Program-made: the position numbers and the translations under genes
Origin: Prevotella sp.
GTDB taxonomy: Bacteria; Bacteroidota; Bacteroidia; Bacteroidales; Bacteroidaceae
Reading direction: 5' to 3'
NCBI GenBank assembly: GCA_045131435.1
Contig: JBGUQW010000110.1
Span: 177 to 64,176, forward strand
DNA length: 64,000 nucleotides
The notes under the pieces: generated by a model
Seen by the model: the letters and a program-made list of their open reading frames with translations, nothing else
What the model was told of the DNA's origin: nothing
The model's database searches: none
Shown: positions 10,030 through 42,693 of the stretch, in pieces
Position numbering within the stretch: position 1 is the stretch's first letter
Layout: each line of letters begins with the position of its first letter

Positions 10030-10066
10030 AATAATAGTTGTTATAGTCAGTTATAATTATCCTTGT

Positions 10067-11047: not shown

Positions 11048-11067
11048 ATTGGTTCTCTTTCGTCTGA

Positions 11068-18324: not shown

Positions 18325-20664
18325 TTACTGTTCTATACTCTGAAGGGCAGCGTCGCCCGGCTTATACAACAGACCCGTACACTTCCGGGCATTAGCCTTA
18401 TAGGCCTTCAGCTCCACCTGGTCCCACTGAATCTGGTCGGTACGCTGGGCCAACGGTGCATGGGGAATGAGTGAGCCGTCACGCACCAGGATAACGCACG
18501 GTATCTTGCCGGCCTTGATAGTCTGCCAACCGCTGTCGTGCACCTCACCCGTCTGGTAGTCAATCCATTTCGAGTGTCCTTCAGTTCCCCTGAAGGACGG
18601 GAGATAGACGTCACGCTCAGTGCCGCTCTCCATCAGCGGGGCCACCAGAATCTGTGAACCGAACATATACTCGTCCTCTACCAGCCAGGCTCCCTTATCT
18701 TCGGGGAACTCCACCAGCAGGGCACGCACCATGGGCAGACCGCGCTCCGAGCAGTCCTTAGCCTGGGCATAGACATACGGCATCAGCTTGTATTTCATCT
18801 CGGCACACTCGCGGAAGGCCTCGGTGAATGACTCCGAGATCAGCCACGGCTCCGTGGGCGGTGCACCGTGGGCACGGGTATGACTCGACAGGAAGCCGAA
18901 GGGCAGCCAGCGACGGTAGATATCCTCGGGCGATGCCGTCACAAAGCCACCCATATCGTGGCTCCAGAAGGAGAATCCGCTGAGTCCGAACGACAAACCG
19001 CCACGCAGGTCACCCAGCATACCGATATTCGTCGTGGCAGCATCACCGCCCCAGTGCAGGGCATAGCGCTGACTGCCGGCCCATGCCGAGCGCGCCCAGA
19101 TGATGCCCTCGCCGGGATACTGCTGTTCCACAGCTTCCCAGAGGGTCTTGTTATAGCGCAGCGGATAGAGGTTATGCTCATAGAGTCCGCCCCGTCCGTT
19201 ATGGTAGAAGCCATCGTAGGGCGCAGCTTCTCCGAAGTCGCACTTGATGGTCGACACGCCCTGCTTCAGCAATCCCAGTATCTTCTGCTGATACCAGCTG
19301 ACGGTCTCGGGATTGGTAAAGTCCAGCACGGCATCCTCGTAGGGCATACCGCCATCGGCATTCCGCACGTGGAGATTGTTTCTGACGATCTCCCCAAAGA
19401 AGCGGTTCTTCGGTGTGAAGTACGGCAACTGCCACAAGCAAGTATGGAAGCCGTCCTTCTTCAACTGCTTCAGCATACCCACAGGATCCTTGAAACGGTC
19501 TTTGGCAAACTCGTAGTCACACTGCCAGTCGACGCCAAACCAACCCGTATCGAAGTGGATGACGTCGGAAGGAATCCTGTGCTGGCGCAGCTGCTTGGCA
19601 ATATCCAGTCCCTCTTCTTGCGAGAAGTAGGTGATACGACTCATCCAGGTACCGAACGACCACAACGGCAGCATGGGCGAACGGCCCGTGATGGCGGTGT
19701 ACTCGTACAGGATTTCTTTGGGGGAACCAAGGAACACGAAGAGGTCCAGCTGCTCGTCGGCCATATACAGGCGCTGGGCACCGATATAGCTGGCGCCGAA
19801 GTCGGCAGTGACAGGTGCGGAGGTATGCATAAAAATGCCGTAGCCGCGGTTCGAGAAATAGAACGGCACGGGCTTATACTGCCCGTCGGTCTCCGGTCCC
19901 TGGGGATCGGTGACGCTGAGCTGTACCTTCTGCCCCACCTTGTTCAGGGCACCGAACGACTCGCCGCAACCATAGATACGCTCACCGGGAGCCAGCGAGA
20001 AGACGGGGTTCACCGAACGGCTGTTGTCGTTGCCGCGCTTGATAAACGAGAAGGGCAGCAGCTTCACCTGGCTGGAGTCGTTGTCGATGATATGGCGCGT
20101 CTGCGTCAGCACCCTACCCTGCTTGTCCTTCAGCACCAGGCGGAAGGGGAAGCGCTGGATTTCCAGCCGTCCAAAATCCGTTTCGTATGTGACGACTGAG
20201 TCGTCACACACTGTACGCCAGGCGGACGTTTGGGGTACGGGGCCCGCCAGCATGGGGCTGTCGCTATCCTTCCGCTGCGACGCCACGGGAGTGGTCAGCA
20301 TACGGATGCGCAGGCAGCGGGGACTGATGAAGTCTACCTTCAGCTGCAGGTTGGGGTCGTTGTCGTACTGCGTATCGGGGAAGTCCAGCATCTGCATCCG
20401 CACCGGCCAGTAGCCATTCAGGTTGAAAGCCTGGCGCGGCGTCAGGCGGTAACGCTTCCAGTTTACCAGACCCTCACCCTTGGCAGCGTCGAAGGCGGCC
20501 AGCGAGTCGGCCAGGAAATACGTATGACGCAAATCGTTGAAATCGCCCGTCATATCCTTGGGCATGCACTGCAGATACTGCTGTGCACAGGCTGCCGTCG
20601 TGCTTAGGCACGCCACGAGCAGCATGGTCATCAGTCGTTTCTTCATCTTTCTATTGTATTTCAT
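18325..20664 (-). CDS. glycoside hydrolase family 31 (YicI-like alpha-xylosidase/alpha-glucosidase)
   Basis: GH31 blocks IHFDTGWFGVDW and STIKCDFGEAAP, a signal peptide, and 779 aa. The start could instead be the MKKRLMTM methionine at 20646. Confidence 0.88.
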   Translation of the reverse strand: MKYNRKMKKRLMTMLLVACLSTTAACAQQYLQCMPKDMTGDFNDLRHTYFLADSLAAFDAAKGEGLVNWKRYRLTPRQAFNLNGYWPVRMQMLDFPDTQYDNDPNLQLKVDFISPRCLRIRMLTTPVASQRKDSDSPMLAGPVPQTSAWRTVCDDSVVTYETDFGRLEIQRFPFRLVLKDKQGRVLTQTRHIIDNDSSQVKLLPFSFIKRGNDNSRSVNPVFSLAPGERIYGCGESFGALNKVGQKVQLSVTDPQGPETDGQYKPVPFYFSNRGYGIFMHTSAPVTADFGASYIGAQRLYMADEQLDLFVFLGSPKEILYEYTAITGRSPMLPLWSFGTWMSRITYFSQEEGLDIAKQLRQHRIPSDVIHFDTGWFGVDWQCDYEFAKDRFKDPVGMLKQLKKDGFHTCLWQLPYFTPKNRFFGEIVRNNLHVRNADGGMPYEDAVLDFTNPETVSWYQQKILGLLKQGVSTIKCDFGEAAPYDGFYHNGRGGLYEHNLYPLRYNKTLWEAVEQQYPGEGIIWARSAWAGSQRYALHWGGDAATTNIGMLGDLRGGLSFGLSGFSFWSHDMGGFVTASPEDIYRRWLPFGFLSSHTRAHGAPPTEPWLISESFTEAFRECAEMKYKLMPYVYAQAKDCSERGLPMVRALLVEFPEDKGAWLVEDEYMFGSQILVAPLMESGTERDVYLPSFRGTEGHSKWIDYQTGEVHDSGWQTIKAGKIPCVILVRDGSLIPHAPLAQRTDQIQWDQVELKAYKANARKCTGLLYKPGDAALQSIEQ

Positions 20665-20975: not shown

Positions 20976-21048
20976 AATTTTCAATTATTCATTGATCAAT
21001 CGCCGAAGGCGACCATTCCTCATTCCTCATTCCACATTCCTCATTTTA
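20976..21048. repeat. composite element: AT-rich heptamers, a GC hairpin TCGCC-GAA-GGCGA (21000-21012), then CATTCCT heptamers
   Basis: The architecture and hairpin core (AATCGSCGAAGSCGAC) match the element at 51885-51957. The LRR stop codon lies in the right-hand array. Confidence 0.7.
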
Positions 21049-22966
21049 TCACTACTTTTCGTCCGTTATTGATGTAGATTCCCTTCTTCGTTGGCTTCTG
21101 CGAGAGCTTGCGGCCACTCAGGTCATACCACTCCCCTCCATATAGGGAGGGGCTGGGGGTGGGTCTGAGGTTCGTCGTCTCGCCCTCATAAATCCACTGG
21201 AATCCCGCTGCATTGTTGCTGAGGTTCAGTTGATTGGTGGGCAGTGAGAGGTACGCCTTGTTGGCGCCGATGGCTCCGGCCTCAGAGAGCGTGTACCAGT
21301 CGATGCCGTAGTTGCCGTTGGCCAGGATGAAGTTCGTGTTCGTGCTGGTGGTCACGGGTACCTCAGTCGTAGCGTCCGTCACACCGACCAGGTAGTTCTG
21401 GGCAGGCGCACTGGCGCTGGTGGCGACTGGTACGGTGAATGTTGTGCTGGGTGTACCCTTCAGCAGCAGGCCTGTACCGGCGGGTACTGCGCCGACACTG
21501 CTCAGCGTCAGTGTGCCTGCTGTGCCGTCGAATGCGCTGACGATGTATGCCGACAGTCCAGCGATGCCCGTGAAGTCGAGCGCCTGGGTGCTGGCATAGG
21601 TCATGATGCCTGCGCTGTTCATGGTCACGGTGCAGGCGAGGGGGAGGAATTCTTCGGTGCCGCTGTATGTCAGGTAAGCCGTCTGGGCGACGATGTCATC
21701 GGTGTCGCTGAGACGGTAGAAGCCTATGCCGTCGCTGCCATTTTTCAGCATGTAGGCATTGCCCGGGTTGGTGATTCTGGTCATTTTTCCTTCAAGTCTG
21801 TTGCTATTGTAGCTGTGAGTGCTGCCCGAAGCTGCATATTCAGGCTGAATGCTACTTGATGCAGACTTCAGCACCACGCCCTTGCCCTTGTTGATGATGC
21901 GGTCAGGAATCTCCACCAGCTTCAGAGAAGTGCCGCTGAGCGTCACTTTGAATACCTGCGTTCCTGAGGGCGCCTGAGCGTTGGAGAGATTGTTGAAGTA
22001 TGTTGCCCAGTACTCGCCCGTCTCTGCTTCTTCGGCAGGGATGGTGATGGCCTCTATCCTGCTTGCATAGTCGCTCCAGCCACTCTTATAGGTATCGACA
22101 CATCCGTTGAATACGTGAATCTTAAGTTTTGCATTTGTGCCTGCGAAAGCAGTGCTACTATACGTAGTCAGACTTGGCGCATAGATGGTTGCTGACGTCA
22201 GGTTTTCATTATTGCACCCATAGAAGGCATAGTTGCCAATGTGCGTTACGCCTTCATCGATAACGATGCTTGTGATAGAGGCACGGTCAGAGTACCATGG
22301 GGCATTACCTGCTGAATAATCCGCCATTGCTCCCATACCGCTGATCATCAGTACGCCATACTGTGCCAGCACCCACGTCACTTCACTTTCGTGCCCAGTT
22401 GTGCCGCAGTTTCCCATGCCATCATAGCCCATTATGATGCTGGATTTGTCAGACCAATTGGCGGCAGCTTTGTAATCATCAACACTAGCTGTAGGCACAT
22501 ATATTGTTGTAAGGGCAGAGCATCCATCAAATGCCTTGGTGCCCAGCGTTGTTAACGGAAACAAGCGTTTTACGGCAACTGTAGTAAGCTTGCTACATAT
22601 ATTGAAAGCATAATTACCGATACTCTTCATGCTGGAGGGAATCTCAATAGATGTCAGATTGCTACAACGATTGAAAGCATAGTCACTAATGTGGGTAATG
22701 TTATTATCGATAACCACCGTTGTGATGTTGTCCCTAAAAGAGAACCATGGGGTTTGATCCTTAGTGTAGTCCCACATCTCTCCTGTACCGCTGATGGTGA
22801 GGGTCTCGTCGGTGCCGTCGCTATTGGTGTCGGTCATGGTCCATGTGACGTTATCACCACAGTAGCCATCACTGACTACTGCGGCGGTGCCGGTGACGTC
22901 GGTGCTGGTGCCGCTACCCGTCCATGCCCATGCCGTCTGTGCGGTCATCGTGAGCAAAAAGTACAC
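21041..22966 (-). CDS. BspA-type leucine-rich-repeat surface protein with a T9SS C-terminal sorting domain
   Basis: Repeated units of the type IxxYAFxxCxxLTSIxIPSS, and a C-terminus WYDLSGRKLSQKPTKKGIYINNGRKVVIK. The 5' end is unclear: either a GTG start at 22966, or ATG 23036 plus a 1-nt frameshift (see finding). Confidence 0.8.
   Translation of the reverse strand: MYFLLTMTAQTAWAWTGSGTSTDVTGTAAVVSDGYCGDNVTWTMTDTNSDGTDETLTISGTGEMWDYTKDQTPWFSFRDNITTVVIDNNITHISDYAFNRCSNLTSIEIPSSMKSIGNYAFNICSKLTTVAVKRLFPLTTLGTKAFDGCSALTTIYVPTASVDDYKAAANWSDKSSIIMGYDGMGNCGTTGHESEVTWVLAQYGVLMISGMGAMADYSAGNAPWYSDRASITSIVIDEGVTHIGNYAFYGCNNENLTSATIYAPSLTTYSSTAFAGTNAKLKIHVFNGCVDTYKSGWSDYASRIEAITIPAEEAETGEYWATYFNNLSNAQAPSGTQVFKVTLSGTSLKLVEIPDRIINKGKGVVLKSASSSIQPEYAASGSTHSYNSNRLEGKMTRITNPGNAYMLKNGSDGIGFYRLSDTDDIVAQTAYLTYSGTEEFLPLACTVTMNSAGIMTYASTQALDFTGIAGLSAYIVSAFDGTAGTLTLSSVGAVPAGTGLLLKGTPSTTFTVPVATSASAPAQNYLVGVTDATTEVPVTTSTNTNFILANGNYGIDWYTLSEAGAIGANKAYLSLPTNQLNLSNNAAGFQWIYEGETTNLRPTPSPSLYGGEWYDLSGRKLSQKPTKKGIYINNGRKVVIK
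21131..21161 (-). repeat. C-rich/G-rich palindromic mini-element, in frame in the LRR gene (inside the T9SS CTD)
   Basis: The sense strand reads cacccccagcccctcc-ctatat-ggaggggag, which encodes TPSPSLYGGE. Confidence 0.7.
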
Positions 22967-23558: not shown

Positions 23559-26501
23559 TTACAGCTTGACGCTGACGGCCTTGCCGTTGTATTGTACGGT
23601 CTTGCCCTCGGGATTGTCGAGGTTGAGAGCCTTGGCATCGTCCTTTGTGACGAGGACAACCTTGAAGGTGCGGTTCTTCAGCATGCCCGTGAACTGTCCC
23701 TTGCGCTGTCCGAAGGAGAGGGTGCGCGAGGCATCGTCGTACTTCATCTCGATGGTGGCGTACTTGCCCTTCTCGTAGTTGTAGTTGGTACCCTCGTCCT
23801 CATAGAGCAGGAACTGGGCGTTCCGTCCGGCATAGACATAAACGGTCAGCAGGTCGGCAGGACGCTCGTCGGCATACTGGATGACGGGACCATAGGGGAT
23901 GATGCTGCCCTCGCGGACATAGACCGGCATGCGCTCGTAGGGGGCATCGACCACCATACGCTGCCCGCCCTGGATATACTCGCCGCTGTAGAGGTCGTAC
24001 CAGCCAGAGGCCTTGGGGAAGTAGACGCTACGGTTGCGGGCCTTATAGTAGCCTACAGGACAAGCCATGAAGGCGGGACCGAACATCCACTGGTCCTTGA
24101 TGTCGAAGACCTCGCGCTCGTTGCTGAAGTCCATCACCAAGGCACGCATCATGGTGTAGTCGTTGAAGTGTACCCAGCCGGCCATAGAATAGAGGTAAGG
24201 CATGAGGCGGTAGCGCAGCTTGTCGTAGTAGACGAACGAGCGGTAGGCAGGATGGTTGTCGGGTGCGATGTTCCAGATTTCACGTGTAGGCCACTGGCCA
24301 TGTACGCGGAACAGGGGGATGAAGGCACCGAACTGGCTCCAGCGTGCCTGCAGCTCGCGCCACTCCTTGAGGTCTTCGTTCTCCACGCCGCTCTTGTCGA
24401 ACTGCTGCTGGGCAGCCACATAGCGCTTCTCAACACAGAAGCCGCCCTGGTCCATGCCCCAGAAGGGCAGACCCGACATAGAGTAGTTCAGGCCGGCCGT
24501 CATCTGGGCACGCATGTCCTCCCAGCGGGTACCGATGTCGCCCGACCATGTGGCGGTGCTGTAACGCTGCTCGCCGGCAAAGCCGCTGCGGGTGAGCAGG
24601 AAGACGCGCTGGTTGGGGGCGACTGAGCGCTGGCCGTTGTAGATGGCGTCGGCATTGACGATGCTGTAGGCATTGAAATACTCGGTGGCAGTACCCAAAG
24701 CGGTCGGGCCGCTGAGTGCCTTGCGGTACCACATGGGGGTGCAGTCGCGGACATTGGGCTCGGAGGCATCCATCCACCAGGCATCGATGCCATACTTATA
24801 CTTCGTGAAGAGGTTGTCGTTCATCTGTTTCCAGAACAGCTTGCGGGCACCGGCATCGTAGGCATCGTAGAACGAACCGACATAGCCCGGGCCTACCCAG
24901 TCGTGGATGTCGTCCTTGACGGCCTGGTGGTACATCCAGCCCTTGGCATCGATCTCCTTGTAGTTGTCGGTATTGCAGTAGAACTTGGGCCAGACGGAAA
25001 TCATGAAGCGGCCACCCATCTGGTGTACCTTGTCGAGCATGGCCTGCGGATTGGGATAGCGCGAGGCCTCGAACTGGTGGGAGCCCCACTGGTCCTCCTT
25101 CCAGTAGTTCCAGTCCTGCACGATGTTGTCGCACGGAATCTGGCGCTTGCGGAACTCAGCGAGGTTGTCCTCTATCTCCTGCTGTGTCTGGTAACGCTCA
25201 CGACTCTGCCAGAAACCCAGCACCCACTTGGGATAGACGGGAGCCTTGCCAGTCAGTGTACGGTAGCCGCTGATGACCTCGTCGGCATTGCGACCGGCAA
25301 TGAAGTAGTAGTCCATGTCCTTGGCCATCTCGCTCCAGATGCTGAGCTTGTACTGATCCTCGCCAATCTGCTTGGCGACACGCAGACCGCAATAGCTGAC
25401 GCTGCCGTCAGGCTGCCACTCGATGCGCAGCTGGGCACGACGTCCCTTCTCGAGCAGGGTCATGAACTTATAGGTGTTGGGGTTCCAGGCCGTACGCCAA
25501 CGCTCGGGCACTACCTCCTGACCGTCGATGTACACCTTGATATAGCCGGCATAGTAGAGGATGAAGTGGTAGACACTGCTGGACGGAGCCTCGATGAAGC
25601 CCTCGTAGGTGACCGTGGCGCCATCGAGCTGGAAGTCCTTCGGCAGGTTCTTGATGCCGCCGGGCTCGGTGCGGTTGGCCAGTTCAGAGGCTGCGGGGCA
25701 GTCGAACTCGTAGTAGATGGAGTCCTCGTCGCGCACCAGTTTCTTGCCGTTCTTGTCGACATAGGTACCGGTCAGGTGTCCTTCCTTGCCATGCTTGTCG
25801 AAGAGCTTGAAGGCACGGCCCAACTGCAGGTAGTCGTTGGGATTGCCGAAACGGCAGTAGCTGTAGGAGTCCCACAGGATACCGTAGTTGCGGTTGGAGA
25901 GCACAAAGGGTACGCTGACCTTGGTGTTATACTGGAAGAGGTCTTCGTTGCGGCCCTTCATGTTCAGCTCCTCAGACTGGTGCTGGCCGAGACCATAGAG
26001 CGCCTCGTTGTTGTTCTGGTTAAACAGCAGGCGCCATGTCAGACCGTTTTTCTGGGACTCGGGCACCTTGGCGATGTCGACACCAATCTCACGGTCGGGC
26101 ACACGGTAGGGCTGGAACGTCTTACCGTTCTCGGCCTCGCTGGCAAGCTGGTTTCCCTGGGCGTCGTAGAACGTCACACGACCAGTCTGTCTCTCAACAC
26201 GGGCTTCCACGTTCTTGGCCTTGACGCTAACCACGCTGCCGTCCTTGACGGTAAACTTCGGCTTGGCAGTCTGGTTGACCACTGTCAGACTCTGCTTCTC
26301 GGGCAGCTGTGACTCGGACGTGGCCTGCACACGGATAATGTTGTCGTTAACTACTTGCAGACGTACCACACGTGGTCCGCCGGCCTTGACTTGTCTGACG
26401 GGAATGGTCACCTGCTGGCCGTTGACCATGTCGTCGGCAGCCATCAACAGGACGGCTGCCATGGACAGCGCACCCGTCAAGATTGTTCTCATTGTTTTCA
26501 T
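23559..26501 (-). CDS. glycoside hydrolase family 31 alpha-xylosidase-like enzyme with a PA14-like insert
   Basis: Nucleophile region GIDAWWMDASEPN and a PA14-like segment (VYHFILYYAGYIKVYIDGQEV...), plus a signal peptide. 980 aa. Confidence 0.88.
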   Translation of the reverse strand: MKTMRTILTGALSMAAVLLMAADDMVNGQQVTIPVRQVKAGGPRVVRLQVVNDNIIRVQATSESQLPEKQSLTVVNQTAKPKFTVKDGSVVSVKAKNVEARVERQTGRVTFYDAQGNQLASEAENGKTFQPYRVPDREIGVDIAKVPESQKNGLTWRLLFNQNNNEALYGLGQHQSEELNMKGRNEDLFQYNTKVSVPFVLSNRNYGILWDSYSYCRFGNPNDYLQLGRAFKLFDKHGKEGHLTGTYVDKNGKKLVRDEDSIYYEFDCPAASELANRTEPGGIKNLPKDFQLDGATVTYEGFIEAPSSSVYHFILYYAGYIKVYIDGQEVVPERWRTAWNPNTYKFMTLLEKGRRAQLRIEWQPDGSVSYCGLRVAKQIGEDQYKLSIWSEMAKDMDYYFIAGRNADEVISGYRTLTGKAPVYPKWVLGFWQSRERYQTQQEIEDNLAEFRKRQIPCDNIVQDWNYWKEDQWGSHQFEASRYPNPQAMLDKVHQMGGRFMISVWPKFYCNTDNYKEIDAKGWMYHQAVKDDIHDWVGPGYVGSFYDAYDAGARKLFWKQMNDNLFTKYKYGIDAWWMDASEPNVRDCTPMWYRKALSGPTALGTATEYFNAYSIVNADAIYNGQRSVAPNQRVFLLTRSGFAGEQRYSTATWSGDIGTRWEDMRAQMTAGLNYSMSGLPFWGMDQGGFCVEKRYVAAQQQFDKSGVENEDLKEWRELQARWSQFGAFIPLFRVHGQWPTREIWNIAPDNHPAYRSFVYYDKLRYRLMPYLYSMAGWVHFNDYTMMRALVMDFSNEREVFDIKDQWMFGPAFMACPVGYYKARNRSVYFPKASGWYDLYSGEYIQGGQRMVVDAPYERMPVYVREGSIIPYGPVIQYADERPADLLTVYVYAGRNAQFLLYEDEGTNYNYEKGKYATIEMKYDDASRTLSFGQRKGQFTGMLKNRTFKVVLVTKDDAKALNLDNPEGKTVQYNGKAVSVKL

Positions 26502-26574: not shown

Positions 26575-29500
26575 TTAGTCTATCACTTCGGGTACGACAT
26601 ATTCCACCTCAGGATGGACGGGCAGAGAGATGAAGAAGATGGTGCCGCCACCGGGATTGTCCTCCAGACGGATGCTGCCGCCATGGGCCACCACGATATT
26701 CTTCACGATATCGAGACCGATACCCTCGCTACCCACCATGGGTTCGAAGGCAGTAGCCTTGAATTCGTCCTTAATGCCAATGCTGTTATCAGCCACCTGA
26801 ATGCTGGCAAGGTCACCCTCGCCACGTCCGACATTGACGAATATCTGGCAGTCGCCGGGCGAGAAGCGGACGCTGTTTTTGAACAGGATGTTCATGGCCT
26901 CGACGATCTTCTTGCGGTCAATGCTTGCCAACAACTCATCGGCCATCGAGCGACAGGTGACCTTGGCCTTCCGTCCTGTAGGTGAGTCGGCAAAGACCTT
27001 AGTGACATCCTTCACGACATCCACCAGATTGCAGTCGGCGAGGTTCAGGGTGATGGCTGTTGGCTGTTGGGTGTTGGGTGATGGCTGTTGGCTGTCAGCT
27101 GAGGGGTGTTGACCATCGGCCTCTACCTTGAGCTTCTTGTACATCTCACTCATCCAATGCTGCTTATCGGTCTCGCGCTGTAGTTCCTGGGCACGGACAC
27201 GCTCAGCATGGCGCTTCAGGAACCAGCGGCGCCACCACCATGCTGCAGCGGCTATGAGCACCATGTAGAGCAGGATCATCCAGCGTGTGCGCCATAGTGG
27301 CGGACGGATGGTGATGTCGAGTTCGGCCTCGTCCTCACCCAGTGTGCCGTCGTCGTTCAGCATGCGGACATGCAAGGTGTAAGAGCCGGCACGCAGGGAG
27401 TTATAGGTGATGTTGGGGTTCTGCTCGGAGGTCTTCACCCAGTTTTCGTTGAAGCCCTCAAGCTGATAGACAAAGCGTGAGCGGTTGTGGATCTCGCCGC
27501 TCGAGCTGGCCAGCTGGATGGTGAACTGCTCGTCGTAGCGCAGCGTGATGTCACGGCAGTCGTCAAGGGCTTCGTCGAGAATGACACGACCCTCAATCTC
27601 CTGACCTACGGGGACGTCCTGGTCGAAGATTTGCAGACCACTAAAGAGGGGCACCTCACGGACACGGCCCTTGCCCATGTTCTTGGGGTTGATGACGTCG
27701 AGACCACCCTGACCGCCTACAAGGATGAGACCGTCAGGGGTATAGCACATGGAACGCTGGTTGTAGGGGCCGTCCTGCAAGCCGTCGCGGTTGTTGTAGC
27801 TGTGTACCACGAAACTCCACGTGCCATCGTCCTGCTTTGTCGGAACGATGTTCGAGATACCATGGTCGGTAGCCAGCCAGATGGTATGCCTGGCGTCTTC
27901 GATGATACTATTGACAGTAGAACCGAAGAATCCCGACTTCATATCGAGCAGATAGACGTGGTTGCCCTTACGGTCCCAGATGGTTGCACCCTGCGTGGAA
28001 CCCTGCCAGATGAGTTCGCGGCTGTCCTCAAGGGACGTAATGCCGCTCTCTGTAATGGGAACGTCATCCTGATTATTCGTGATATTGAAGTTCAGAATCT
28101 GGAAGGTCTTGGGATTGATGTACGAAATGTATTGCGAGTGGGAGATTTGCAGCCACCCCTTCTTGGTCTTGCCAACCACATTGATGTAGTCGCTGGGCAG
28201 ACGAGAATTGCTGATACGGAAGGTGCGCATCTTGCCGGTATTTTTGTCGATGCGCTGCACACCGGCTCCCAGCGTACCTATCCAGATATTGCCCCACATG
28301 TCTTCACACAGCGTCCAGACATTATTGGTCTGAAGACCGGTGGTATCGTTCGATGCCAGGATGTTCGTCACCTGACCGTTCTTGATGCGGATGATACCGC
28401 CTTCGAAGGTACCGAACCACACGGAGCCGTCACGGGCAACCAGTGATCCCACCATGGTGTTAGAGCGGAAACCGCTGTTCTCACGGTTGTAGACGACCTG
28501 CTCCTGGGTACGTGGATTATAGCGGATGATACCCTTGTCATTAGTGCCCAGCCACCAGTAGCCCTGACGGTCGGCACAGACGGTGTTGATGTTGCCCAGC
28601 TCCAGGTTGACGAAATTGGAGAGGCTGCCCGAATAGAGGTTGACACCACTGGTATAGGTACCTATCCACATGCGTCCCAGCTGGTCGCACATCAACATGC
28701 GCACGGTGTTGTCGGAGATGGTGGACTGGTCGAGCTTGTTGTTCAGGAACTGGCGCATCTCCTTCGTCTTGGGGTCAGCAATGAAGAGACCGCCATGATC
28801 GGTAGCTATCCAATAGCGACCTTCCTTGTCGACACGCATGTCCCAGATGGCCATCTCGCTGGGAACATCCTGATAGCCCCAGCTGCGCAGGGCCTCAGGA
28901 GCAGAGCGGATCCACTCCTTGGTGTGCAGGTTCAGAATGTAGGCATTGCCCGTAGAAATCAGCCACAGGAAACCGTCAGGGGTGAGGCATGGTCTGCAGC
29001 CCTGATTGTTCACCAACTGCTGTTCGCGCAGGTATTTGTTCTTCCATACAATGCGATCGGTCTTCTTGTCGAAACACAGCACCTCGCCATTGTTTGAGGT
29101 GACATACAGGTATTTGTCGTCATCGGTAAAGGATGACACACCGATGTCGTTATTGAACTCCTGGTCGCCATAGCCAAAGGGGTATTGCTTCAGCTTGGAC
29201 TCCTTGAGGTCAACATGCCAGAAACCATCTTCGAAGGTCTTTACCCAGTAGTTTTTCTCGCTGTCGATATAGATGCGCTCGACACCGCCCTTGACGCCAG
29301 CCTTGGTCAGTATGCGCTCAGGATGGCGGTCGGCCTGTTCCGTCCGCGGATCGAAGGTGGTATAGTTCATGCCCTGACGAAGCCACAGACAGCCATCGGC
29401 AGCCTCATAGATTTCGTCAATGTAGTTGTTACGCAGCGTCATGGTATCCTTCAGGACCGAGTAATAGGTCTTGAAGCGATAGCCGTCGTAGCGGTTCAGA

Positions 29501-29676
29501 CCATAGGGCGTGCCTATCCATACGAATCCTTTGGAGTCGCGCATAATAGATAGGATCTGTGAATTGGAGAGACCGTCGCGGGTGTCCAATCGACGAAACT
29601 TCATATCAGGAATACTGGCCTGAAGTGCCACTGGCAGCAGCATGGCCACCAAAAGCAGGGATAGTGTTCTTCGCAT
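26575..29676 (-). CDS. HTCS-like periplasmic sensor (beta-propeller repeats + Y_Y_Y + one TM). It keeps only a degenerate HATPase-like C-terminus, with no H-box, receiver or HTH.
   Basis: N-terminus FRRLDTRDGLSNSQI...GLNRYDGY and repeated propeller units. TM segment WMILLYMVLIAAAAWWW. The tail has KNSVRF, DNSIGI and GSEGIGLDIV but no HExxTPL box. Confidence 0.85.
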   Translation of the reverse strand: MRRTLSLLLVAMLLPVALQASIPDMKFRRLDTRDGLSNSQILSIMRDSKGFVWIGTPYGLNRYDGYRFKTYYSVLKDTMTLRNNYIDEIYEAADGCLWLRQGMNYTTFDPRTEQADRHPERILTKAGVKGGVERIYIDSEKNYWVKTFEDGFWHVDLKESKLKQYPFGYGDQEFNNDIGVSSFTDDDKYLYVTSNNGEVLCFDKKTDRIVWKNKYLREQQLVNNQGCRPCLTPDGFLWLISTGNAYILNLHTKEWIRSAPEALRSWGYQDVPSEMAIWDMRVDKEGRYWIATDHGGLFIADPKTKEMRQFLNNKLDQSTISDNTVRMLMCDQLGRMWIGTYTSGVNLYSGSLSNFVNLELGNINTVCADRQGYWWLGTNDKGIIRYNPRTQEQVVYNRENSGFRSNTMVGSLVARDGSVWFGTFEGGIIRIKNGQVTNILASNDTTGLQTNNVWTLCEDMWGNIWIGTLGAGVQRIDKNTGKMRTFRISNSRLPSDYINVVGKTKKGWLQISHSQYISYINPKTFQILNFNITNNQDDVPITESGITSLEDSRELIWQGSTQGATIWDRKGNHVYLLDMKSGFFGSTVNSIIEDARHTIWLATDHGISNIVPTKQDDGTWSFVVHSYNNRDGLQDGPYNQRSMCYTPDGLILVGGQGGLDVINPKNMGKGRVREVPLFSGLQIFDQDVPVGQEIEGRVILDEALDDCRDITLRYDEQFTIQLASSSGEIHNRSRFVYQLEGFNENWVKTSEQNPNITYNSLRAGSYTLHVRMLNDDGTLGEDEAELDITIRPPLWRTRWMILLYMVLIAAAAWWWRRWFLKRHAERVRAQELQRETDKQHWMSEMYKKLKVEADGQHPSADSQQPSPNTQQPTAITLNLADCNLVDVVKDVTKVFADSPTGRKAKVTCRSMADELLASIDRKKIVEAMNILFKNSVRFSPGDCQIFVNVGRGEGDLASIQVADNSIGIKDEFKATAFEPMVGSEGIGLDIVKNIVVAHGGSIRLEDNPGGGTIFFISLPVHPEVEYVVPEVID
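27048..27096 (+). repeat. GT-rich heptamer array inside the sensor gene
   Basis: gggtgat ggctgtt ggctgtt gggtgtt gggtgat ggctgtt ggctgt. The antisense reading gives QQPSPNTQQPTAIT. Confidence 0.8.
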
Positions 29677-29710
29677 CTCGTACAGTTGCTAAGTAGTTTT
29701 ATGTTTTCTG

Positions 29711-29718
29711 CAAAAGTA
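29711..29718 (-). promoter_or_regulatory. -7 box TACTTTTG (sensor 26575-29676)
   Basis: Consensus match in the 81-nt spacer between the two sensor genes. Confidence 0.5.
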
Positions 29719-29757
29719 CGACTTTTCTATTAGATGACCAAATAAAATGGAGAATAT

Positions 29758-32259
29758 TTATTTCTTGCTGCTATTTTTTTCTACATACCTGTGACGCAGT
29801 TGCCAAATGATTGCTGCCGCCAGCAGCAGCCAAAGCAGCCAAGCCCACCAGGAACGATACCAGGGCACGCCGATGGTAATGTCAAGGCGGCTCTCGTATT
29901 CGCCCATCGTACCGTCGTCCTTGAACATGCGCACACACAGTGTGTAGGAACCCGAAGGAAGACCCATGTAACTGATGTTGGGATTGATGGCTTCCGTCTT
30001 GACCCATGTGTCGTTATAGCCCTTCAGGCAGTAGATGAAGCGGGTGCCGTTCTTGATGCTGCCGTCATCAGATGCCATCTGAATGGTGAAGTGGTTCTCA
30101 GAGTGTTTCAGGGTGATCGCATCGCTGTCGAACAAGGCCTTCTTCAAGACGACATGTCCGTCATACTCATGACCCGACTCGATGAGCTTGTCGTAAATCA
30201 CCAGACCGCTGAATATGGGCTTTTCTTCCTTACTGTCACCTGCCAGCTTACGGGTATTGATGATGTCAAGACCGTCCTGACCGCCTATCAGCAGCATGCC
30301 CGCTTTGGAATAGTAGACGGCACGCTGGTTGAAGGGACCAGGCTGCAGACCGTCGCGGTCGTTGTAGCTGCGGACGGCAAAGGTCCATACACCGTCCTCT
30401 TCCTGTTGGGGAGTGATGTTCGACACGCCATGGTCGGTGACTGCCCAGATGGTGCCACGGGCATCTTCCGTCAGTGCCACGACGCTGTTGCCGTGGAATC
30501 CTGACTTCATGTCGAGCAGCGTGCTTTGTCCTGTCTTGCGATCGAACACATTGACACCCGATGCCGACCCCTGCCAGATGAGTCCCCTCTCGTCCATCAG
30601 TGCTTGCGTGGTGGACGCTGAGATGGTGTAGGAGTTGGGGTCGTGGGGCAATGGCATGTTGAGGACCTTCATGGTCTTGGGATTCACCAGCGAACAGTAT
30701 TCGGAGTTGCCTAACAGAATCCAGCCGTTGGCAGCACGGGAGATGCTGTTGGTCCAGTCGGTCTTGATCCTGGAGTTCTTCGTCGTCCAGGAGCGTTGCT
30801 TGTCAGTATTCTTGTCGATGCGTACCACACCGCCACCCAGCACACCGGCCCAGATGTTGCCCCAGTAGTCTTCTGTCACGCCCCACACGTTGTTGGTCTG
30901 GAAGGCACTGCCCGGCATGGCGGCCGTGTAGTTCTTCCATTGTCCGTTGCGATAGCGGATGAGGCCGCCTTCCCATGTGCCGAACCACAAGGAGCCGTCC
31001 TTGGCGGCATAGCTGCCGACGATGACGTCGTTCTGCGCTCCTATGTCTTGTTTGTAATAGCGTTCCTCCACCTCATAGGTCTCCGGGTTGACCTTCAATA
31101 TACCGCCGCTGTTCAGGCCCAGCCAGTAGTGGCCGTCGCGGTCTTCGGTGATGGCATTGATGTCTCCCAGCATCAGACTGCTGAAGTTCGACATGGCATC
31201 GGCACTCATGGCTACACCGTTCTTGTACGTTGCCACCCACATGCGTCCTAACTGGTCCTCATAGAGATGTTTGGCTGTGATGTCGGGAAGGGTAGTCTCG
31301 TCGCCTTTCACGTTGGTGAACTGGCGCCACTCCTTGTTCTTGAAGTCGAGCAACAGCACGCCCAAATGGTCGGTAGCCACCCACAAATAGCCTTTCTGGT
31401 CGTAGCGCACCTCCCAGACGATGATGTCGTCGGGCACGTTCTCGAAGCCCTTGGCACGCATCAGTTCTGTCAGCGACGTATACCAGCGCTTGTCCTGTGG
31501 TACATATATATAGGTACCCGTAGAATGGGTGATGACCCACGTGATACCGTCCTTGTCGTAATAGAGCCAATAGTCGTTATAGGTGTCGTTCAGACTGCGC
31601 CGAACGTAGTCTTCCCTCCACAGCACCTTGCCCTTTACGTCGTCGATGCACATCAGCTCGCCCAGGTTTGATACCAGCAGTATGCCCTCCTTCGTCCTGG
31701 CATAGCACATGATACCGAACTCCTTCGGGAACTCGTTGTCCTTGTAGCCGAAGCCCATATTGACCAGCTTCTTGGTATTAGGGTCGTAAATGTAATAGCC
31801 GTTATCCCACGACTTCACATAGAAACGCTTGGTGACAGGGTCGATGAAGAGGTGTTCGGCACCTCCCGTCATACCGTATTCAGCCAGCGACTTGGTAGGC
31901 CAACGCTCCACAGTCTCCGTGATGGGGTCGTAGACAGCATAGTTGAAGCCATGGTCCAGCCACAGACGGCCGTCGAAAGCCTCCATCACCGCGTTTACAC
32001 GGTTGGAGCGGATGGTTGTCGTATCTTGCTCGTAAGAGTAGAATGTACGGAAGCGGTAGCCGTCGTAGCGGCACAGTCCGAATGGGGTGGGGAGCCAAAC
32101 GAAACCACGGGAGTCACGCAGGATGCAGTTTACCTGGGAGTTTGATAATCCGTCACGTGTATCCAGTCGGCGGAACTTGATATCGGGAATCACTGCCATT
32201 GAAATGAGTGGCAGTAGGGCTAGTAGTAATAGTGCTTGTCGTAGTTTACTTGTCATCAT
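29758..32259 (-). CDS. HTCS-like periplasmic sensor (beta-propeller repeats + Y_Y_Y + one TM) that ends about 20 aa after the TM
   Basis: A paralog of the neighbouring sensor (FRRLDTRDGLSNSQV...GLCRYDGYRF). It ends WWAWLLWLLLAAAIIWQLRHRYVEKNSSKK. Confidence 0.85.
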   Translation of the reverse strand: MMTSKLRQALLLLALLPLISMAVIPDIKFRRLDTRDGLSNSQVNCILRDSRGFVWLPTPFGLCRYDGYRFRTFYSYEQDTTTIRSNRVNAVMEAFDGRLWLDHGFNYAVYDPITETVERWPTKSLAEYGMTGGAEHLFIDPVTKRFYVKSWDNGYYIYDPNTKKLVNMGFGYKDNEFPKEFGIMCYARTKEGILLVSNLGELMCIDDVKGKVLWREDYVRRSLNDTYNDYWLYYDKDGITWVITHSTGTYIYVPQDKRWYTSLTELMRAKGFENVPDDIIVWEVRYDQKGYLWVATDHLGVLLLDFKNKEWRQFTNVKGDETTLPDITAKHLYEDQLGRMWVATYKNGVAMSADAMSNFSSLMLGDINAITEDRDGHYWLGLNSGGILKVNPETYEVEERYYKQDIGAQNDVIVGSYAAKDGSLWFGTWEGGLIRYRNGQWKNYTAAMPGSAFQTNNVWGVTEDYWGNIWAGVLGGGVVRIDKNTDKQRSWTTKNSRIKTDWTNSISRAANGWILLGNSEYCSLVNPKTMKVLNMPLPHDPNSYTISASTTQALMDERGLIWQGSASGVNVFDRKTGQSTLLDMKSGFHGNSVVALTEDARGTIWAVTDHGVSNITPQQEEDGVWTFAVRSYNDRDGLQPGPFNQRAVYYSKAGMLLIGGQDGLDIINTRKLAGDSKEEKPIFSGLVIYDKLIESGHEYDGHVVLKKALFDSDAITLKHSENHFTIQMASDDGSIKNGTRFIYCLKGYNDTWVKTEAINPNISYMGLPSGSYTLCVRMFKDDGTMGEYESRLDITIGVPWYRSWWAWLLWLLLAAAIIWQLRHRYVEKNSSKK

Positions 32260-32279
32260 AAGAGAATATTGGTAATCAC

Positions 32280-33311
32280 CTATTTCTTTTTGTTTTTGGC
32301 CGATGTCTCGCGGATGACTAACTGCTGGGGAACGATTTCCTTATAGACCTTCGTATCGCCGGCAATGTTCTTTAACAGCAGCTGACAGGCGGTGACACCC
32401 ATCAGGTGCGACTGGTCTTCAATGGCCGACATGCGTGGTGTGACATAGGCTGCATGGGCATCGTCAGTAAAGCCGATAAGTGCCACATCCTCAGGGATGC
32501 GCAAACCACGTTCCTTGATAGCCGTAAAGGCAGCAAAGGTAATGATGTCGTTGAAGGCGAGGATGGCATCTGGCGGCGAAGGCAAGTCAAGCAGTCTCAG
32601 GGTAGCATCGAGAGCCACCTGATAGTCAATCTTGTCGCAGGCCACGATGTCCCTGTCAATGGAAATGCGGTTTTCCCGCAATGCTTCCAGATAGCCGTGT
32701 TTGCGGCGTCGCACCATGTCAAGGTGGTTGGGACCGCCGATGAATGCGATGCGTTTGCTACCGGTATCTATCAGGTGCTGTGTAGCCATCTGTGCTGCCT
32801 CGTCACCATTGGCTGTCACGGTCGAGAAGCGGTCAGTCAGGCAGGTACGTCCAAAGAATACCAATGGCACCCCCATCGTAGCTATCTCTTCATAGTGCTG
32901 GTAGTCGGTGGTATTCTGAGCCAGACAGGCGATGATGCCTTCTACGTGCAGACCGAGGAAGTTATCGATGGCACGGGCTTCGTCTTCAAAGCTCTCATGG
33001 CTGTTGGCACTGATGACGCTATAGCCGGAACGGCGTGCCTCGTCCTCAATGCCATCGAGTACGGCGGCATAATAGTGTGTTACCAGATTAGGTACGACGA
33101 CGCCAATCACCTTCGGAGCCTCCTTACGCAGACTCTGTGCAAAAGGGTTGGGACGGTAGTTCAGCTTTTTGGCCAGTTCCTTCACCCGCTCCTGCATCTC
33201 TTTTCCTATTTCCGGAGAGCTGCGTAATGCCCTGCTGACGGTTGCTATGCTAACCCCCAATTCCCGAGCTAAATCCTTCAACGAGGTTCGATGCTGCTTC
33301 TTGTTTGTCAT
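32280..33311 (-). CDS. LacI-family transcriptional regulator
   Basis: HTH SLKDLARELGVSIATVSRAL and a periplasmic-binding-fold core. The start is set at ATG 33311 because the track start overlaps the -7 box at 33333-33340. Confidence 0.9.
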   Translation of the reverse strand: MTNKKQHRTSLKDLARELGVSIATVSRALRSSPEIGKEMQERVKELAKKLNYRPNPFAQSLRKEAPKVIGVVVPNLVTHYYAAVLDGIEDEARRSGYSVISANSHESFEDEARAIDNFLGLHVEGIIACLAQNTTDYQHYEEIATMGVPLVFFGRTCLTDRFSTVTANGDEAAQMATQHLIDTGSKRIAFIGGPNHLDMVRRRKHGYLEALRENRISIDRDIVACDKIDYQVALDATLRLLDLPSPPDAILAFNDIITFAAFTAIKERGLRIPEDVALIGFTDDAHAAYVTPRMSAIEDQSHLMGVTACQLLLKNIAGDTKVYKEIVPQQLVIRETSAKNKKK

Positions 33312-33332: not shown

Positions 33333-33340
33333 CAAAGATA
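33333..33340 (-). promoter_or_regulatory. -7 box TATCTTTG (LacI gene)
   Basis: Consensus match, about 20 nt upstream of ATG 33311. Confidence 0.55.
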
Positions 33341-33429
33341 CGAATTTTTATCTAACTCGCAAACGTTTACGTGTTTTTTTTTAGCTTTTTTACTTGAAAA
33401 TCACGAAATAGTATGTACCTTTGCAACGT

Positions 33430-36155: not shown

Positions 36156-37418
36156 TCAGCTTTTTGATAATTCCACCCAGAACACGGAGCCTTTCCCCAG
36201 TTCTGAAGCGACGCCGACGTTACCCCCCAGCGTCAGTGCCATGCTACGGCAGATGCTCAATCCTAGTCCCATGCCAGGTACGAACTCATTGACCTTGACA
36301 AAGCGTTCAAACAAAGCATCGTTGCACTTATCGGCAGGGATACCCTGTCCTGTATCACGCACCCAGATACGCCAGTGACTGCCTGTATCATCACATCCCA
36401 GGGTTATTTTCCCTTCAAGCGTAAACTTGATGGCATTGTCGATATATTGGTTCAGTATTTCTCGCAAACGGTCACGGTCGGTATGGAGTACCGGCATGGT
36501 CTCTTCGTCCTCAATCTCCAGGGCTAGTCCCTTTATTTCCGCCCTGACTACATATTTTTCCTTCAATGAAGTCATGAGCGACTGCAGTTGGAATTCCGAG
36601 CGTTTTATCTCTCCGCCGCCACGTGCCTCCAACTTCGACATATTGACAATGTCGTCAAACAGGCGCAGCAGCTGGTTATTGCTCTGACTGATCATCGACA
36701 CCAGATGTTGGCGTTCCTCATCGTCTTCCACCATCGGCAGTACTTCGCTGAATCCTACAATGGCATTCAGCGGCGTACGTATCTCGTGACTGATATTGGC
36801 CAGGAAGGCAGATTTCAGGCGGTCGCTCTCTTCGGCATGGAACAGCGCATCCATCAATGCCTGCTCTATCTCTTTCTGCTGGTCGATGCGTCTGGTTGTG
36901 CCCACCAAGGTCAGCGGCTTGCCCTTGGCATCTCTTTTCTCTATCGTCACAAAAGTCTCGCTCCAATAACTTTCCTCGCTGTGGGGTTTCCGCATCTTGT
37001 ATTGAATGTGGAAGTTGTCAGTCATACCTGTTGCCACATCGTGCAGTCCTTTCCTGATGACGTCCTGGTATTCAGGGGACAGCTGCTCGATAATAGTTTC
37101 AGTAGTGGCATTCGACGGAGGGTCGATGTTATCGGTAAATTCCCGGTAGTCACTGTTGATGCTGACTGCACGTGTTGGTACATCAACACGCCAGATACAC
37201 AGTTTCATGGCTTTGATGACCATCTCATATTCAATGGAGTAGCGCTGCATCTTCTTCATCTGGGCCAGTTCGCTGTCCAGCATCTTCTTCTGGCGATACT
37301 GATACCATAACAACCATATTGCCCCCACCATCAGCGGGAGACCTACGACCCATGCCAGGATGTCCAGCCTCAGCATGGATTCAAGGGCAAAAAGCAGTGT
37401 CATTGCAGTTGCTACCAT
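36156..37418 (-). CDS. sensor histidine kinase (two TM segments, PAS-like, HisKA, HATPase_c)
   Basis: H-box FLANISHEIRTPLNAI, N-box YIDNAIKFT, G-boxes DTGQGI and GMGLGLSI. There is no adjacent response regulator. Confidence 0.9.
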   Translation of the reverse strand: MVATAMTLLFALESMLRLDILAWVVGLPLMVGAIWLLWYQYRQKKMLDSELAQMKKMQRYSIEYEMVIKAMKLCIWRVDVPTRAVSINSDYREFTDNIDPPSNATTETIIEQLSPEYQDVIRKGLHDVATGMTDNFHIQYKMRKPHSEESYWSETFVTIEKRDAKGKPLTLVGTTRRIDQQKEIEQALMDALFHAEESDRLKSAFLANISHEIRTPLNAIVGFSEVLPMVEDDEERQHLVSMISQSNNQLLRLFDDIVNMSKLEARGGGEIKRSEFQLQSLMTSLKEKYVVRAEIKGLALEIEDEETMPVLHTDRDRLREILNQYIDNAIKFTLEGKITLGCDDTGSHWRIWVRDTGQGIPADKCNDALFERFVKVNEFVPGMGLGLSICRSMALTLGGNVGVASELGKGSVFWVELSKS

Positions 37419-42656: not shown

Positions 42657-42692
42657 TTTTGTATTGTCCTCGCTTATTCGTACCTTTGTAGC
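42657..42692 (+). promoter_or_regulatory. promoter block with TTTG (-33) and TACCTTTG (-7), for the GH2 gene
   Basis: 32 of 36 nt are identical to the block at 37552-37587. Confidence 0.6.
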
Positions 42693-42693
42693 C

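Follow-up and report, generated by a model that had tools for sequence, protein, structure and literature searches.

How can a periplasmic glycan sensor act on DNA when it has lost both its phosphorelay and its DNA-binding domain? The question is raised by a locus in a 64-kb stretch of a Prevotella sp. contig (JBGUQW010000110.1; hereafter the window), in which a gene for a LacI-family repressor (LacI), genes for two proteins resembling the sensors of hybrid two-component systems (HTCSs; sensors A and B) and two glycoside hydrolase family 31 genes (GH31L and GH31S) all lie on the minus strand. Glycan sensing in gut Bacteroidota is, in the textbook view, the task of HTCSs, whose internal His-Asp relay is assumed to be necessary. 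A first-pass annotation had left two readings side by side: a graveyard of broken HTCS genes, or an undescribed coupling of periplasmic sensing to a one-component regulator or another partner. Our analysis gives good support to the view that the sensors are functional and not a graveyard, and we hold this to be very probably correct. The locus is a real, conserved variant of HTCS glycan sensing that has apparently gone undescribed so far, and this variant is specific to xyloglucan side-chain processing in rumen and gut Prevotellaceae. Based on a gene fusion and on genomic linkage, the best single hypothesis is that the sensor signals to LacI, as its output, without phosphotransfer; we give this hypothesis an even chance.

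Sequence analysis recovered the layout described in the first-pass annotation, namely a signal peptide, Reg_prop propeller repeats, a Y_Y_Y region and a single transmembrane segment (TM), in both sensor A (Pfam Reg_prop, E = 4e-24; Y_Y_Y, E = 1e-9) and sensor B (E = 4e-33 and 2e-14, respectively). The two had also been called paralogs, and they are 46.7% identical over 783 aa; sensor A, said to end about 20 residues after the TM, ends 14 residues after it. The periplasmic domain of B matches that of BT4663 (4A2L; E = 3e-61, phmmer) and contains many residues that are invariant across 23 homologues. The propellers also gave a weak NCBIfam match to PorZ, a non-signalling protein of the type IX secretion system (T9SS) with the same fold. 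On the cytoplasmic side, B carries an HATPase_c domain at residues 920-1020, which Pfam scores at 59 bits (E = 6e-16) where 26 bits would suffice and which A does not have, and no HisKA, Response_reg or HTH_AraC/HTH_18 domain was found in either protein at E ≤ 0.01 (Pfam). The profile searches that had been proposed as a check thus bore out the loss of the H-box/DHp, the receiver and the AraC-type helix-turn-helix (HTH), and revealed no cryptic HisKA or receiver.

We also analyzed the cytoplasmic part of B by more sensitive means. Neither HisKA, nor a receiver, nor an AraC HTH was detected there by Pfam even at E ≤ 10, and profile-profile comparison (hhalign) with the neighbouring PAS-HisKA kinase of the window (36156-37418) aligned the CA (HATPase_c) domain only. 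The homologue alignments contain no conserved His in this part of the protein, and the His of the window's ‘KQHWM’ falls in a variable column (Q/H/S/E). In an AlphaFold model based on a 19-sequence alignment of B residues 797-1033, a single continuous helix runs from the TM to about residue 854 and is followed by a disordered linker and then by a compact α/β domain with a pLDDT of ~90. A cryptic HisKA, LytS-type or HisKA_3 DHp in B was looked for and not found in the Pfam search at E ≤ 10, the hhalign comparison or this model. Next, we performed a profile search of B against 1.84 billion cluster representatives (50% identity). Few full-length clusters shared B's architecture, and the next-best matches were canonical HTCSs of 1260-1400 aa, in which the B profile spans ~60 extra residues. 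According to the alignment, these extra residues are the H-box (FxTNxSHELRTPL) and the remaining DHp, in place of which B has a linker, and the B motif RETEKxQWMxEMR aligns with the segment immediately N-terminal to the canonical H-box. The proposal that ‘WMSEM’ is an H-box minus its His was therefore rejected. The loss of the H-box and DHp in B is precise and family-wide. Given that A and B have no H-box His, no DHp hairpin and no receiver, a phosphorelay through these sensors is impossible.

The ATPase-like domain of B had been described as degenerate. The domain is present, but its degeneracy was overstated: across the B family neither the Asn of the N box nor the Asp/Gly of G1 varies and G2 is mostly retained, so that the ATP-binding fold is intact, and Foldseek matched the domain to the catalytic domains of HK853, WalK, YycG and DivL (E ~1e-12). 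The C-terminus is also conserved. A terminal motif, (I/V)EEA(V/E)(L/I/M)(M/I)(D/E)(D/E), ends nearly all B proteins and ~70% of A proteins, and is absent from the C-type sensors described below; besides the window, it was noted at the C-termini of A and B in L005, L042 and L047-L080. Of the window copies, A has lost this acidic tail and B has a variant of it (…VPEVID). Because the motif is the only conserved cytoplasmic element of A, we suggest that it is a docking peptide for some partner.

To place these proteins among their relatives, we scanned one genome per species and obtained 80 loci, all from Prevotella or other Prevotellaceae and mostly from rumen metagenome-assembled genomes (MAGs); the isolates among them include Xylanibacter ruminicola D31d and Prevotella spp. 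tf2-5, P5-50, khp7 and Tc2-24. Relative to the window's B, identity ranges from 44 to 67%. A sensor of the truncated lineage (B-, C- or A-type) is found in 80 of 80 loci, the B type in all but four, and GH31L adjoins the sensor in 74 of 80, immediately downstream of B. The homologues of B form more than 120 clusters (51-91% identity, 1012-1058 aa) with the same domain set, with the exception of one 848-aa protein without CA; those of A likewise form more than 120 clusters (63-89% identity, 815-914 aa) with Reg_prop and Y_Y_Y only, with the exception of P0099 (1033 aa, B-type). The ratio of nonsynonymous to synonymous substitution rates (dN/dS, Nei-Gojobori), which is approximate because dS is ~1-2, was 0.05-0.12 for A, 0.12 for the periplasmic and 0.24 for the cytoplasmic part of B, 0.14 for GH31L and 0.02 for LacI (compared with L001); LacI is 74-92% identical across related loci.

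These data bear directly on the graveyard reading, according to which A and B are left over from hybrid two-component genes that broke and are now decaying. The loss of domains relative to the canonical HTCS at this position would fit decay, as would the absence from the window's A of the acidic tail that most relatives retain. However, the reading frames are intact and share an identical architecture in at least 80 species and hundreds of clusters, the sensors have putative promoters and signal peptides of their own, synteny is conserved, and the dN/dS values of 0.05-0.24 are accompanied by many invariant residues. Full-length HTCS orthologs at this position, combined with relaxed selection or strain-specific truncation of the present copies, had been named as the pattern expected of decay; such an HTCS was found in one relative (L098), but neither relaxed selection nor strain-specific truncation was seen. 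Both truncated forms are conserved families under purifying selection, and the graveyard reading is effectively refuted, with only a very slight chance of being correct.

We then classified the loci by calling open reading frames (ORFs), by BLASTP on the loci and by Pfam on representatives. The commonest type is LacI-B-GH31L. The others are LacI-A-B-GH31L, as in the window; LacI::B-GH31L, with an in-frame fusion of 1373-1376 aa in seven genomes; B-C-GH31L or C-GH31L; B or A-B without a linked regulator; and an A::B fusion in L050 only. The C type consists of the sensor, a TM, a complete DHp in which the H-box His is replaced by D/E/K (HisKA, E = 0.11) and an AraC HTH, without CA or receiver, and is in effect a membrane one-component regulator of HTCS descent. 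Copies are located at L026:12972-16151, L029:13088-16141, L053:9938-13114 and L085:10001-13120, and are often paired with a CA-only B. Neighbour-joining of the periplasmic domains placed the A, B, C and LacI::B sensors in one clade, sister to canonical full-length HTCSs. The canonical HTCS of L098 (P0385, 1371 aa; Reg_prop, Y_Y_Y, HisKA, HATPase_c, Response_reg and HTH_18) is encoded directly upstream of GH31L, in the order HTCS-GH31L (66% identical to that of the window)-GH2-GH31S. From this shared position and the sister relationship it follows that the ancestral state here was a normal HTCS, and B and C are complementary deletion derivatives of it. Since the A clade includes P0099, a B-type protein that still has CA, and since most A proteins carry B's acidic tail, A is derived from a B-type sensor by loss of the helix and CA.

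Stand-alone genes in unrelated contexts (L088:1781-4264, L089:10001-12736 and L005:10001-12583) encode proteins 68-86% identical to the window's A; one of them adjoins T9SS genes (PorP/GldK-N), one is part of a GH31/GH3/GH43/GH97 cluster, and one is found beside menaquinone genes. Close relatives of A, at 82-87% identity, are single genes in neighbourhoods of other kinds. A is therefore independent of adjacency to B or LacI, and may act as a co-receptor, modulator or binding protein. The A::B fusion, a 1899-aa ORF at L050:7415-13114, joins an A-type to a B-type sensor through the signal peptide of the latter. Its topology is coherent (periplasm, TM, cytoplasm, TM, periplasm, TM, CA); it comes from one MAG only, its A part has no acidic tail, and a frameshift or assembly error is possible.

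What the sensors respond to can be approached through the adjoining enzymes. GH31L matches BoGH31A (5JOU) over residues 27-980 (E = 0, 1288 bits) and CjXyl31A (2XVG) at E = 2e-252 (both phmmer), with a weak Pfam match to PA14 (E = 0.0017), and is a close orthologue of BoGH31A, the alpha-xylosidase of the Bacteroides ovatus xyloglucan locus, with a predicted activity on xyloglucan oligosaccharides. GH31S reached E = 1.5e-145 against the alpha-xylosidase model of NCBIfam, short of that model's curated threshold, and its orthologues follow GH31L and a GH2 gene in many related loci. In the window the GH2 gene, which belongs to the same pathway, lies outside the operon, and the LacI operator described below was not found near it. 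Other relatives place the truncated sensors inside full xyloglucan polysaccharide utilization loci (PULs). In L053 the order is LacI, SusC, SusD, SGBP-B (with a xyloglucan-binding domain), BACON-GH5, sensor, GH31L, …, GH2 and GH31S; L007, L025 and L026 resemble it, and a SusC/SusD pair accompanies the truncated sensors in L007, L025 and L053. The xyloglucan PUL of Segatella bryantii is syntenic, and RNA-seq results presented in PMC11107044 include two genes, between GH5_4 and the BoGH31A-like gene, that were induced on xyloglucan and are annotated as ‘hypothetical’ and ‘sensor HK/HTCS’. The same paper describes growth of Xylanibacter on xyloglucan without identifiable PULs (PMC11107044). The first guess at the substrate, xyloglucan or alpha-glucan, is thus narrowed to xyloglucan by the orthology to BoGH31A and by the xyloglucan PULs of relatives. 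Taken together, the results show that the locus is a conserved xyloglucan-oligosaccharide module of rumen and gut Prevotellaceae that is maintained by selection.

LacI contains a LacI HTH and a Peripla_BP core (Pfam, NCBIfam), its closest solved relatives being CcpA and PurR, and, judging by its sequence and candidate operator, it is a regular member of the LacI family. The candidate operator CGTAAACGTTTGCG has a single exact site in the window, with no further copies, for example before GH31S or GH2. Promoters of Bacteroides have the -7 consensus TAnnTTTG, and because the 3' TTTG of the operator lies 19 nt upstream of the -7 box TATCTTTG, it is the -33 element. This one promoter drives the LacI gene, the one or two sensor genes and the alpha-xylosidase gene. 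Across the loci, CGTAAACGTTTGCG is essentially invariant. Of the 50 loci with LacI, 49 have it in front of LacI or LacI::B, at a constant distance from the -7 box; of the 37 that lack LacI, 35 do not have it and two carry it before B. LacI-type palindromes were looked for in the LacI-less loci and are not present, these having plain -33/-7 promoters. Given that the operator is invariant, lies over the promoter and co-occurs with LacI, LacI almost certainly autoregulates the operon by promoter occlusion. The second sensor gene had been credited with a -7 box of its own, and a match to the consensus (TActTTTG) is indeed located in the gap between A and B; it is a possible internal promoter for B.

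Linkage of LacI to the sensors could be judged in 75 loci with enough upstream sequence (counts adjusted for L022 and L049). In ~44 of them (~59%) LacI is linked and on the same strand, immediately upstream in ~27, within 9 kb in 10 and fused in seven; together with the presence of truncated sensors in all 80 Prevotellaceae loci retrieved, this is the outcome of the conservation check proposed in the first-pass annotation. In the fused proteins, the C-terminus of LacI (‘…LVIRETSSK’) runs into ‘SLLKK-ALIVLAFLLMIPMAIQA-AIPDMKFRRLDTR’, which is the signal peptide of B, through an uninterrupted ORF without a stop, an intergenic region or a start codon between the parts, and Pfam finds the LacI HTH, Peripla_BP, Reg_prop, Y_Y_Y and HATPase_c in a single chain. 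Besides the seven species-level genomes, a degenerate DNA pattern for the junction identified the fusion, with the frame open across each junction, in six independent contigs of metagenomes sequenced in other projects, and at the DNA level the junction exists in several distinct versions. The fused proteins have diverged to 77-79% identity (dS ~1.3), the operator is retained upstream, and the dN/dS of the LacI HTH in this clade is ~0.01. By these values the fusion is old, and its LacI part probably still binds DNA. In LacI and PurR structures, the C-terminus of the core is opposite the DNA-binding face; a LacI tethered at this end to the former signal peptide would therefore aim its HTHs into the cytoplasm. 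In addition, pairwise distances of LacI correlated with those of the cytoplasmic domain of B (r = 0.70; partial r = 0.47 given the periplasmic domain) and less with those of GH31L (r = 0.32), although such mirror-tree correlations are confounded by shared ancestry and are only suggestive.

We propose the following scheme. LacI would repress its own operon by blocking the -33 element. The periplasmic part of B would bind xyloglucan oligosaccharides, probably as a dimer and possibly together with A, and ligand binding would shift the conformation of its cytoplasmic module. This module would contact LacI directly and capture or inactivate the repressor at the membrane, so that the operon is de-repressed without phosphotransfer. 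In the fused clade, the chain of LacI, TM1 (the former signal peptide), sensor, TM2 and CA would be a membrane-integrated, LacI-type one-component regulator. Such direct control of LacI by a relay-less HTCS sensor, by protein contact in most species and within one membrane-spanning polypeptide in one clade, is in our estimate a little short of an even bet. The undescribed one-component coupling envisaged at the outset thus gains real, though indirect, support from the linkage, the fusion and the operator, but it is not universal, as LacI is missing from ~31 of the 75 loci.

Several observations weigh against this scheme. Those ~31 loci have B or A-B together with GH31L, no LacI within 9-10 kb and no operator, and a divergent MFS sugar transporter or a GerE-type regulator is often found upstream; LacI is therefore not the universal output of B. 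In L051 and L054 a divergent MFS gene separates LacI and its operator from A-B-GH31L, leaving A-B without an operator. The PUL of L053 combines LacI with a C-type sensor that itself carries an AraC HTH, which breaks a strict mutual exclusion of LacI and the C type and fits two regulators acting in parallel. The effector core of LacI is full and highly conserved, so that LacI may sense a cytoplasmic sugar. The fusion could be tolerated without being functional, with signal peptidase cleaving after the AxA site and separating the halves, and a query with the junction found no fused protein in a database of 5.8 billion proteins, only separate 342-aa LacI proteins of up to 90% identity. Finally, close relatives of A occur alone, as described above.

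Some of these points would be explained if LacI were a local repressor of the GH31 operon of the ordinary, sugar-responsive kind, with a breakdown product in the cytoplasm as its inducer, and if the co-transcribed sensors had some other partner, such as a C-type or canonical HTCS encoded elsewhere (as a heterodimer), the periplasmic-TPR kinase HK590 or a protein that binds the acidic tail. The intact and strongly conserved effector domain of LacI, the ~40% of loci that keep B-GH31L without LacI and operator, and the co-occurrence of LacI and a C-type sensor in L053 are all as expected from this explanation. In the B-C loci, moreover, a CA-only sensor is paired with a DHp*-HTH sensor, as complementary halves of an HTCS, without LacI; at least 20 loci have HK590 as a conserved neighbour; and the acidic tail is common to A and B whether LacI is present or not. 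However, the long-lived, in-frame LacI::B with its retained operator and constrained HTH is left unexplained, and the 64-kb window contains no C-type sensor, no HK590, no further Reg_prop protein and no AraC-type partner. In addition, B and C both lack the phospho-acceptor His, so that a kinase-based relay between them is impossible. We regard parallel, independent regulators as the main rival to our scheme, a serious but rather unlikely explanation. A transcriptional role might also be dispensed with altogether, the sensors being membrane-anchored periplasmic binders of xyloglucan oligosaccharides that provide GH31L and transporters with a scaffold or hand-off, or that act as decoys or dominant-negative receptors, with CA as a structural relic or an ATP-dependent accessory. 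It is true that the tightest linkage is between B and GH31L (74 of 80) and not between B and any regulator, that A has practically no cytoplasmic part and occurs alone near glycoside hydrolase clusters or T9SS genes, and that the propellers weakly match PorZ. Yet purifying selection has conserved B's helix, CA and tail (dN/dS 0.24, with the N and G1 residues invariant), the lineage descends from a transcriptional sensor at the same position, and sister forms carry AraC or LacI DNA-binding domains in one polypeptide. A purely non-transcriptional role is improbable.

Two of the neighbouring proteins deserve mention in their own right. HK590 (~590 aa) has a signal peptide, a periplasmic TPR domain, a TM, an intact HisKA (FIQNVSHEVRTPLN) and HATPase_c. 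It is encoded downstream of GH31L at L028:16077-17846, at L003:17520-19292 and in at least 20 other loci, including all LacI::B loci, and has no orthologue in the window. Docking of the acidic tail to its TPR domain was rejected because the signal peptide places that domain in the periplasm. GerE/LuxR-type regulators, 213-228 aa long and with a receiver that is weak or cannot be detected (L055:9091-9732, L070:6506-7192 and L003:7991-8632), are often encoded immediately upstream of LacI. Some loci that lack LacI have them right in front of the sensors, and in other loci they come after the PAS-HisKA kinase that the window also encodes. As they co-occur with LacI, pair with the nearby PAS kinase and are not found in the window, they were rejected as the output of the sensors.

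Next, we compared the locus with known systems. The closest are the HTCSs themselves (e.g. BT4663, PDB 4A2L/4A2M), with which the sensors share a homologous double-propeller and Y_Y_Y domain, one TM, in B the same CA fold, and the genomic position occupied by the canonical 1371-aa HTCS in L098. Unlike HTCSs, they lack the H-box His and the receiver; B has no DHp hairpin, A and C have no CA, and in place of the AraC HTH missing from A and B there is a LacI that is either separate or fused at the N-terminus. Like CcpA, PurR and LacI, the repressor combines an N-terminal LacI HTH with a type-I periplasmic-binding-protein core, and its 14-bp candidate operator, which overlaps the promoter, has a central CG and resembles the PurR/CcpA type. 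It differs from these LacI/GalR members in being encoded first in an operon with transmembrane sensors and, in one clade, in being fused through a TM to a periplasmic sensor; we know of no described membrane-integrated member of the LacI family. The fused relatives do resemble ToxR and CadC in that a single chain runs from a DNA-binding domain at its cytoplasmic N-terminus through a TM to a periplasmic sensor, and, as in those proteins, DNA binding at the membrane beside their own gene is presumed. However, LacI is not an OmpR-like winged helix, the sensor fold is unrelated, and a second TM and a cytoplasmic CA follow; in the window itself, where LacI and the sensors are separate genes, this topology does not apply. 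In E. coli, Mlc is sequestered at the membrane by EIICB-Glc, which offers a functional analogy, without homology, for a membrane protein that controls a soluble repressor by binding it. DivL, which is among the best matches to the CA of B, likewise signals through a kinase-like module without His phosphorylation, but it keeps its DHp (with a Tyr) and binds a response regulator, whereas B has no DHp hairpin. The pseudo-histidine kinase class is a better fit for the C type, with its complete DHp and His replaced by D/E/K, than for B, but the C type has no CA.

The HTCSs of xyloglucan loci, such as those of the B. ovatus XyGUL and of S. copri (NQ544_01410; PMC11784079), belong to the same comparison. 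With the XyGUL itself (Larsbrink et al. 2014, cited in PMC10766802), the resemblance lies in the closeness of GH31L to BoGH31A and in the BACON-GH5, SusC/D, SGBP-B, GH2 and second GH31 that relatives add; the window locus differs in having no SusC, SusD or GH5, and in its LacI and truncated sensors, which replace the canonical HTCS. Full-text literature searches turned up neither HTCS derivatives that lack the phosphorelay or are linked to LacI nor a membrane-integrated LacI. In the source annotations, B goes by ‘ligand-binding sensor domain-containing protein’ or ‘hypothetical protein’.

An entire lineage of Prevotellaceae has kept the sensor under selection and deleted its relay, while the DNA-binding output differs by species: an AraC HTH on a His-less DHp, a neighbouring LacI, or a LacI at the N-terminus of the sensor. 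If the sensor does control LacI directly, this would be a new transmembrane signalling logic, in which the signal from xyloglucan oligosaccharides crosses the membrane to DNA without phosphorylation, and it would provide the first LacI-type regulator that is integrated in the membrane. The A, B, C and LacI::B forms would then document how output domains have been exchanged in nature on a single sensor scaffold. It would also explain how xyloglucan use is regulated in abundant rumen Prevotella without recognisable PUL regulators, and the periplasmic sensor, LacI and 14-bp operator would offer a compact, modular and kinase-free chassis from which switches that respond to glycans could be engineered. 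Should LacI and the sensors instead act in parallel, these proteins will still be mis-annotated wherever a PUL prediction pipeline counts ‘HTCS’ by domain.

The features of the window are collected in Table 1. LacI heads the minus-strand order, as the first-pass annotation had stated, and is followed by sensor A, sensor B, GH31L, a BspA-type leucine-rich repeat (LRR) protein and GH31S; the placement of LacI, both sensors and both GH31 genes agreed with our gene calls. The statement that the locus is without SusC/SusD also held, as none was found among the large ORFs of the window scanned with Pfam. A TTG at 33335 was rejected as the start of LacI because it would overlap the -7 box and because homologues are 341-346 aa long; the ATG at 33311 is the correct start.

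Table 1. Coordinates of the locus and its elements in the 64-kb window
Feature	Position	Strand	Basis or remark
GH31S, 779 aa, YicI-like alpha-xylosidase candidate	18325..20664	-	NCBIfam
BspA-type LRR protein, 641 aa, between both GH31 genes	21041..22966	-	Pfam LRR_5, E = 4e-30
GH31L, 980 aa, BoGH31A-type	23559..26501	-	phmmer
Sensor B, 1033 aa: signal peptide, Reg_prop, Y_Y_Y, TM, HATPase_c	26575..29676	-	
Sensor B, C-terminal acidic tail (…PEVEYVVPEVID)	26578..26616	-	variant of the family-wide terminal motif
Sensor B, CA (HATPase_c) domain, residues 880-1020	26617..27039	-	N, G1 and G2 boxes present
Sensor B, low-complexity linker of variable length, residues 855-878	27043..27114	-	pLDDT <50
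Sensor B, TM and ~35-residue cytoplasmic helix with motif RETEKxQWMxEMR, residues 797-854	27115..27288	-	
Sensor B, periplasmic domain, residues 21-795, HTCS-type double beta-propeller and Y_Y_Y	27292..29616	-	Pfam
-7-like box TACTTTTG (TActTTTG)	29711..29718	-	in the 81-bp gap between A and B; consensus match only
Sensor A, 833 aa: signal peptide, two-propeller Reg_prop, Y_Y_Y, one TM, 14-residue stub	29758..32259	-	
LacI-family repressor, 343 aa	32280..33311	-	Pfam LacI, E = 4e-13; Peripla_BP_3, E = 3e-30
Bacteroidota-type -7 element TATCTTTG	33333..33340	-	19 nt downstream of the TTTG inside the operator
Candidate LacI-type operator CGTAAACGTTTGCG, 14-bp near-perfect palindrome, central CG	33358..33371		60 bases upstream of the LacI start
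GH2 orthologue, unlinked here	42664..45102	+	tblastn; 74% identical to relatives' GH2 that follows GH31L

Several further genes were observed around the operon. The BspA-type LRR protein is rarely present in related loci and is not a member of the conserved module, and the same applies to a protein with a ‘putative carbohydrate metabolism domain’ (PCMD) at 17155-18312, directly downstream of GH31S, which is not conserved in the relatives' module. Upstream of the LacI operon, positions 33568-36150 encode an 860-aa protein with CarboxypepD_reg and DUF5686 that is a highly conserved neighbour across relatives; its N-terminus resembles the N-terminal extension of SusC, with no detectable TonB-dependent barrel or plug. 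Finally, three tandem paralogous ORFs of 326 aa lie on the minus strand at 9049-12048, beside an Asp/Lys/Asn-type tRNA synthetase gene. Synteny with L005 assigns them to the ROK family (sugar kinases or repressors), and such a triple tandem is unusual.

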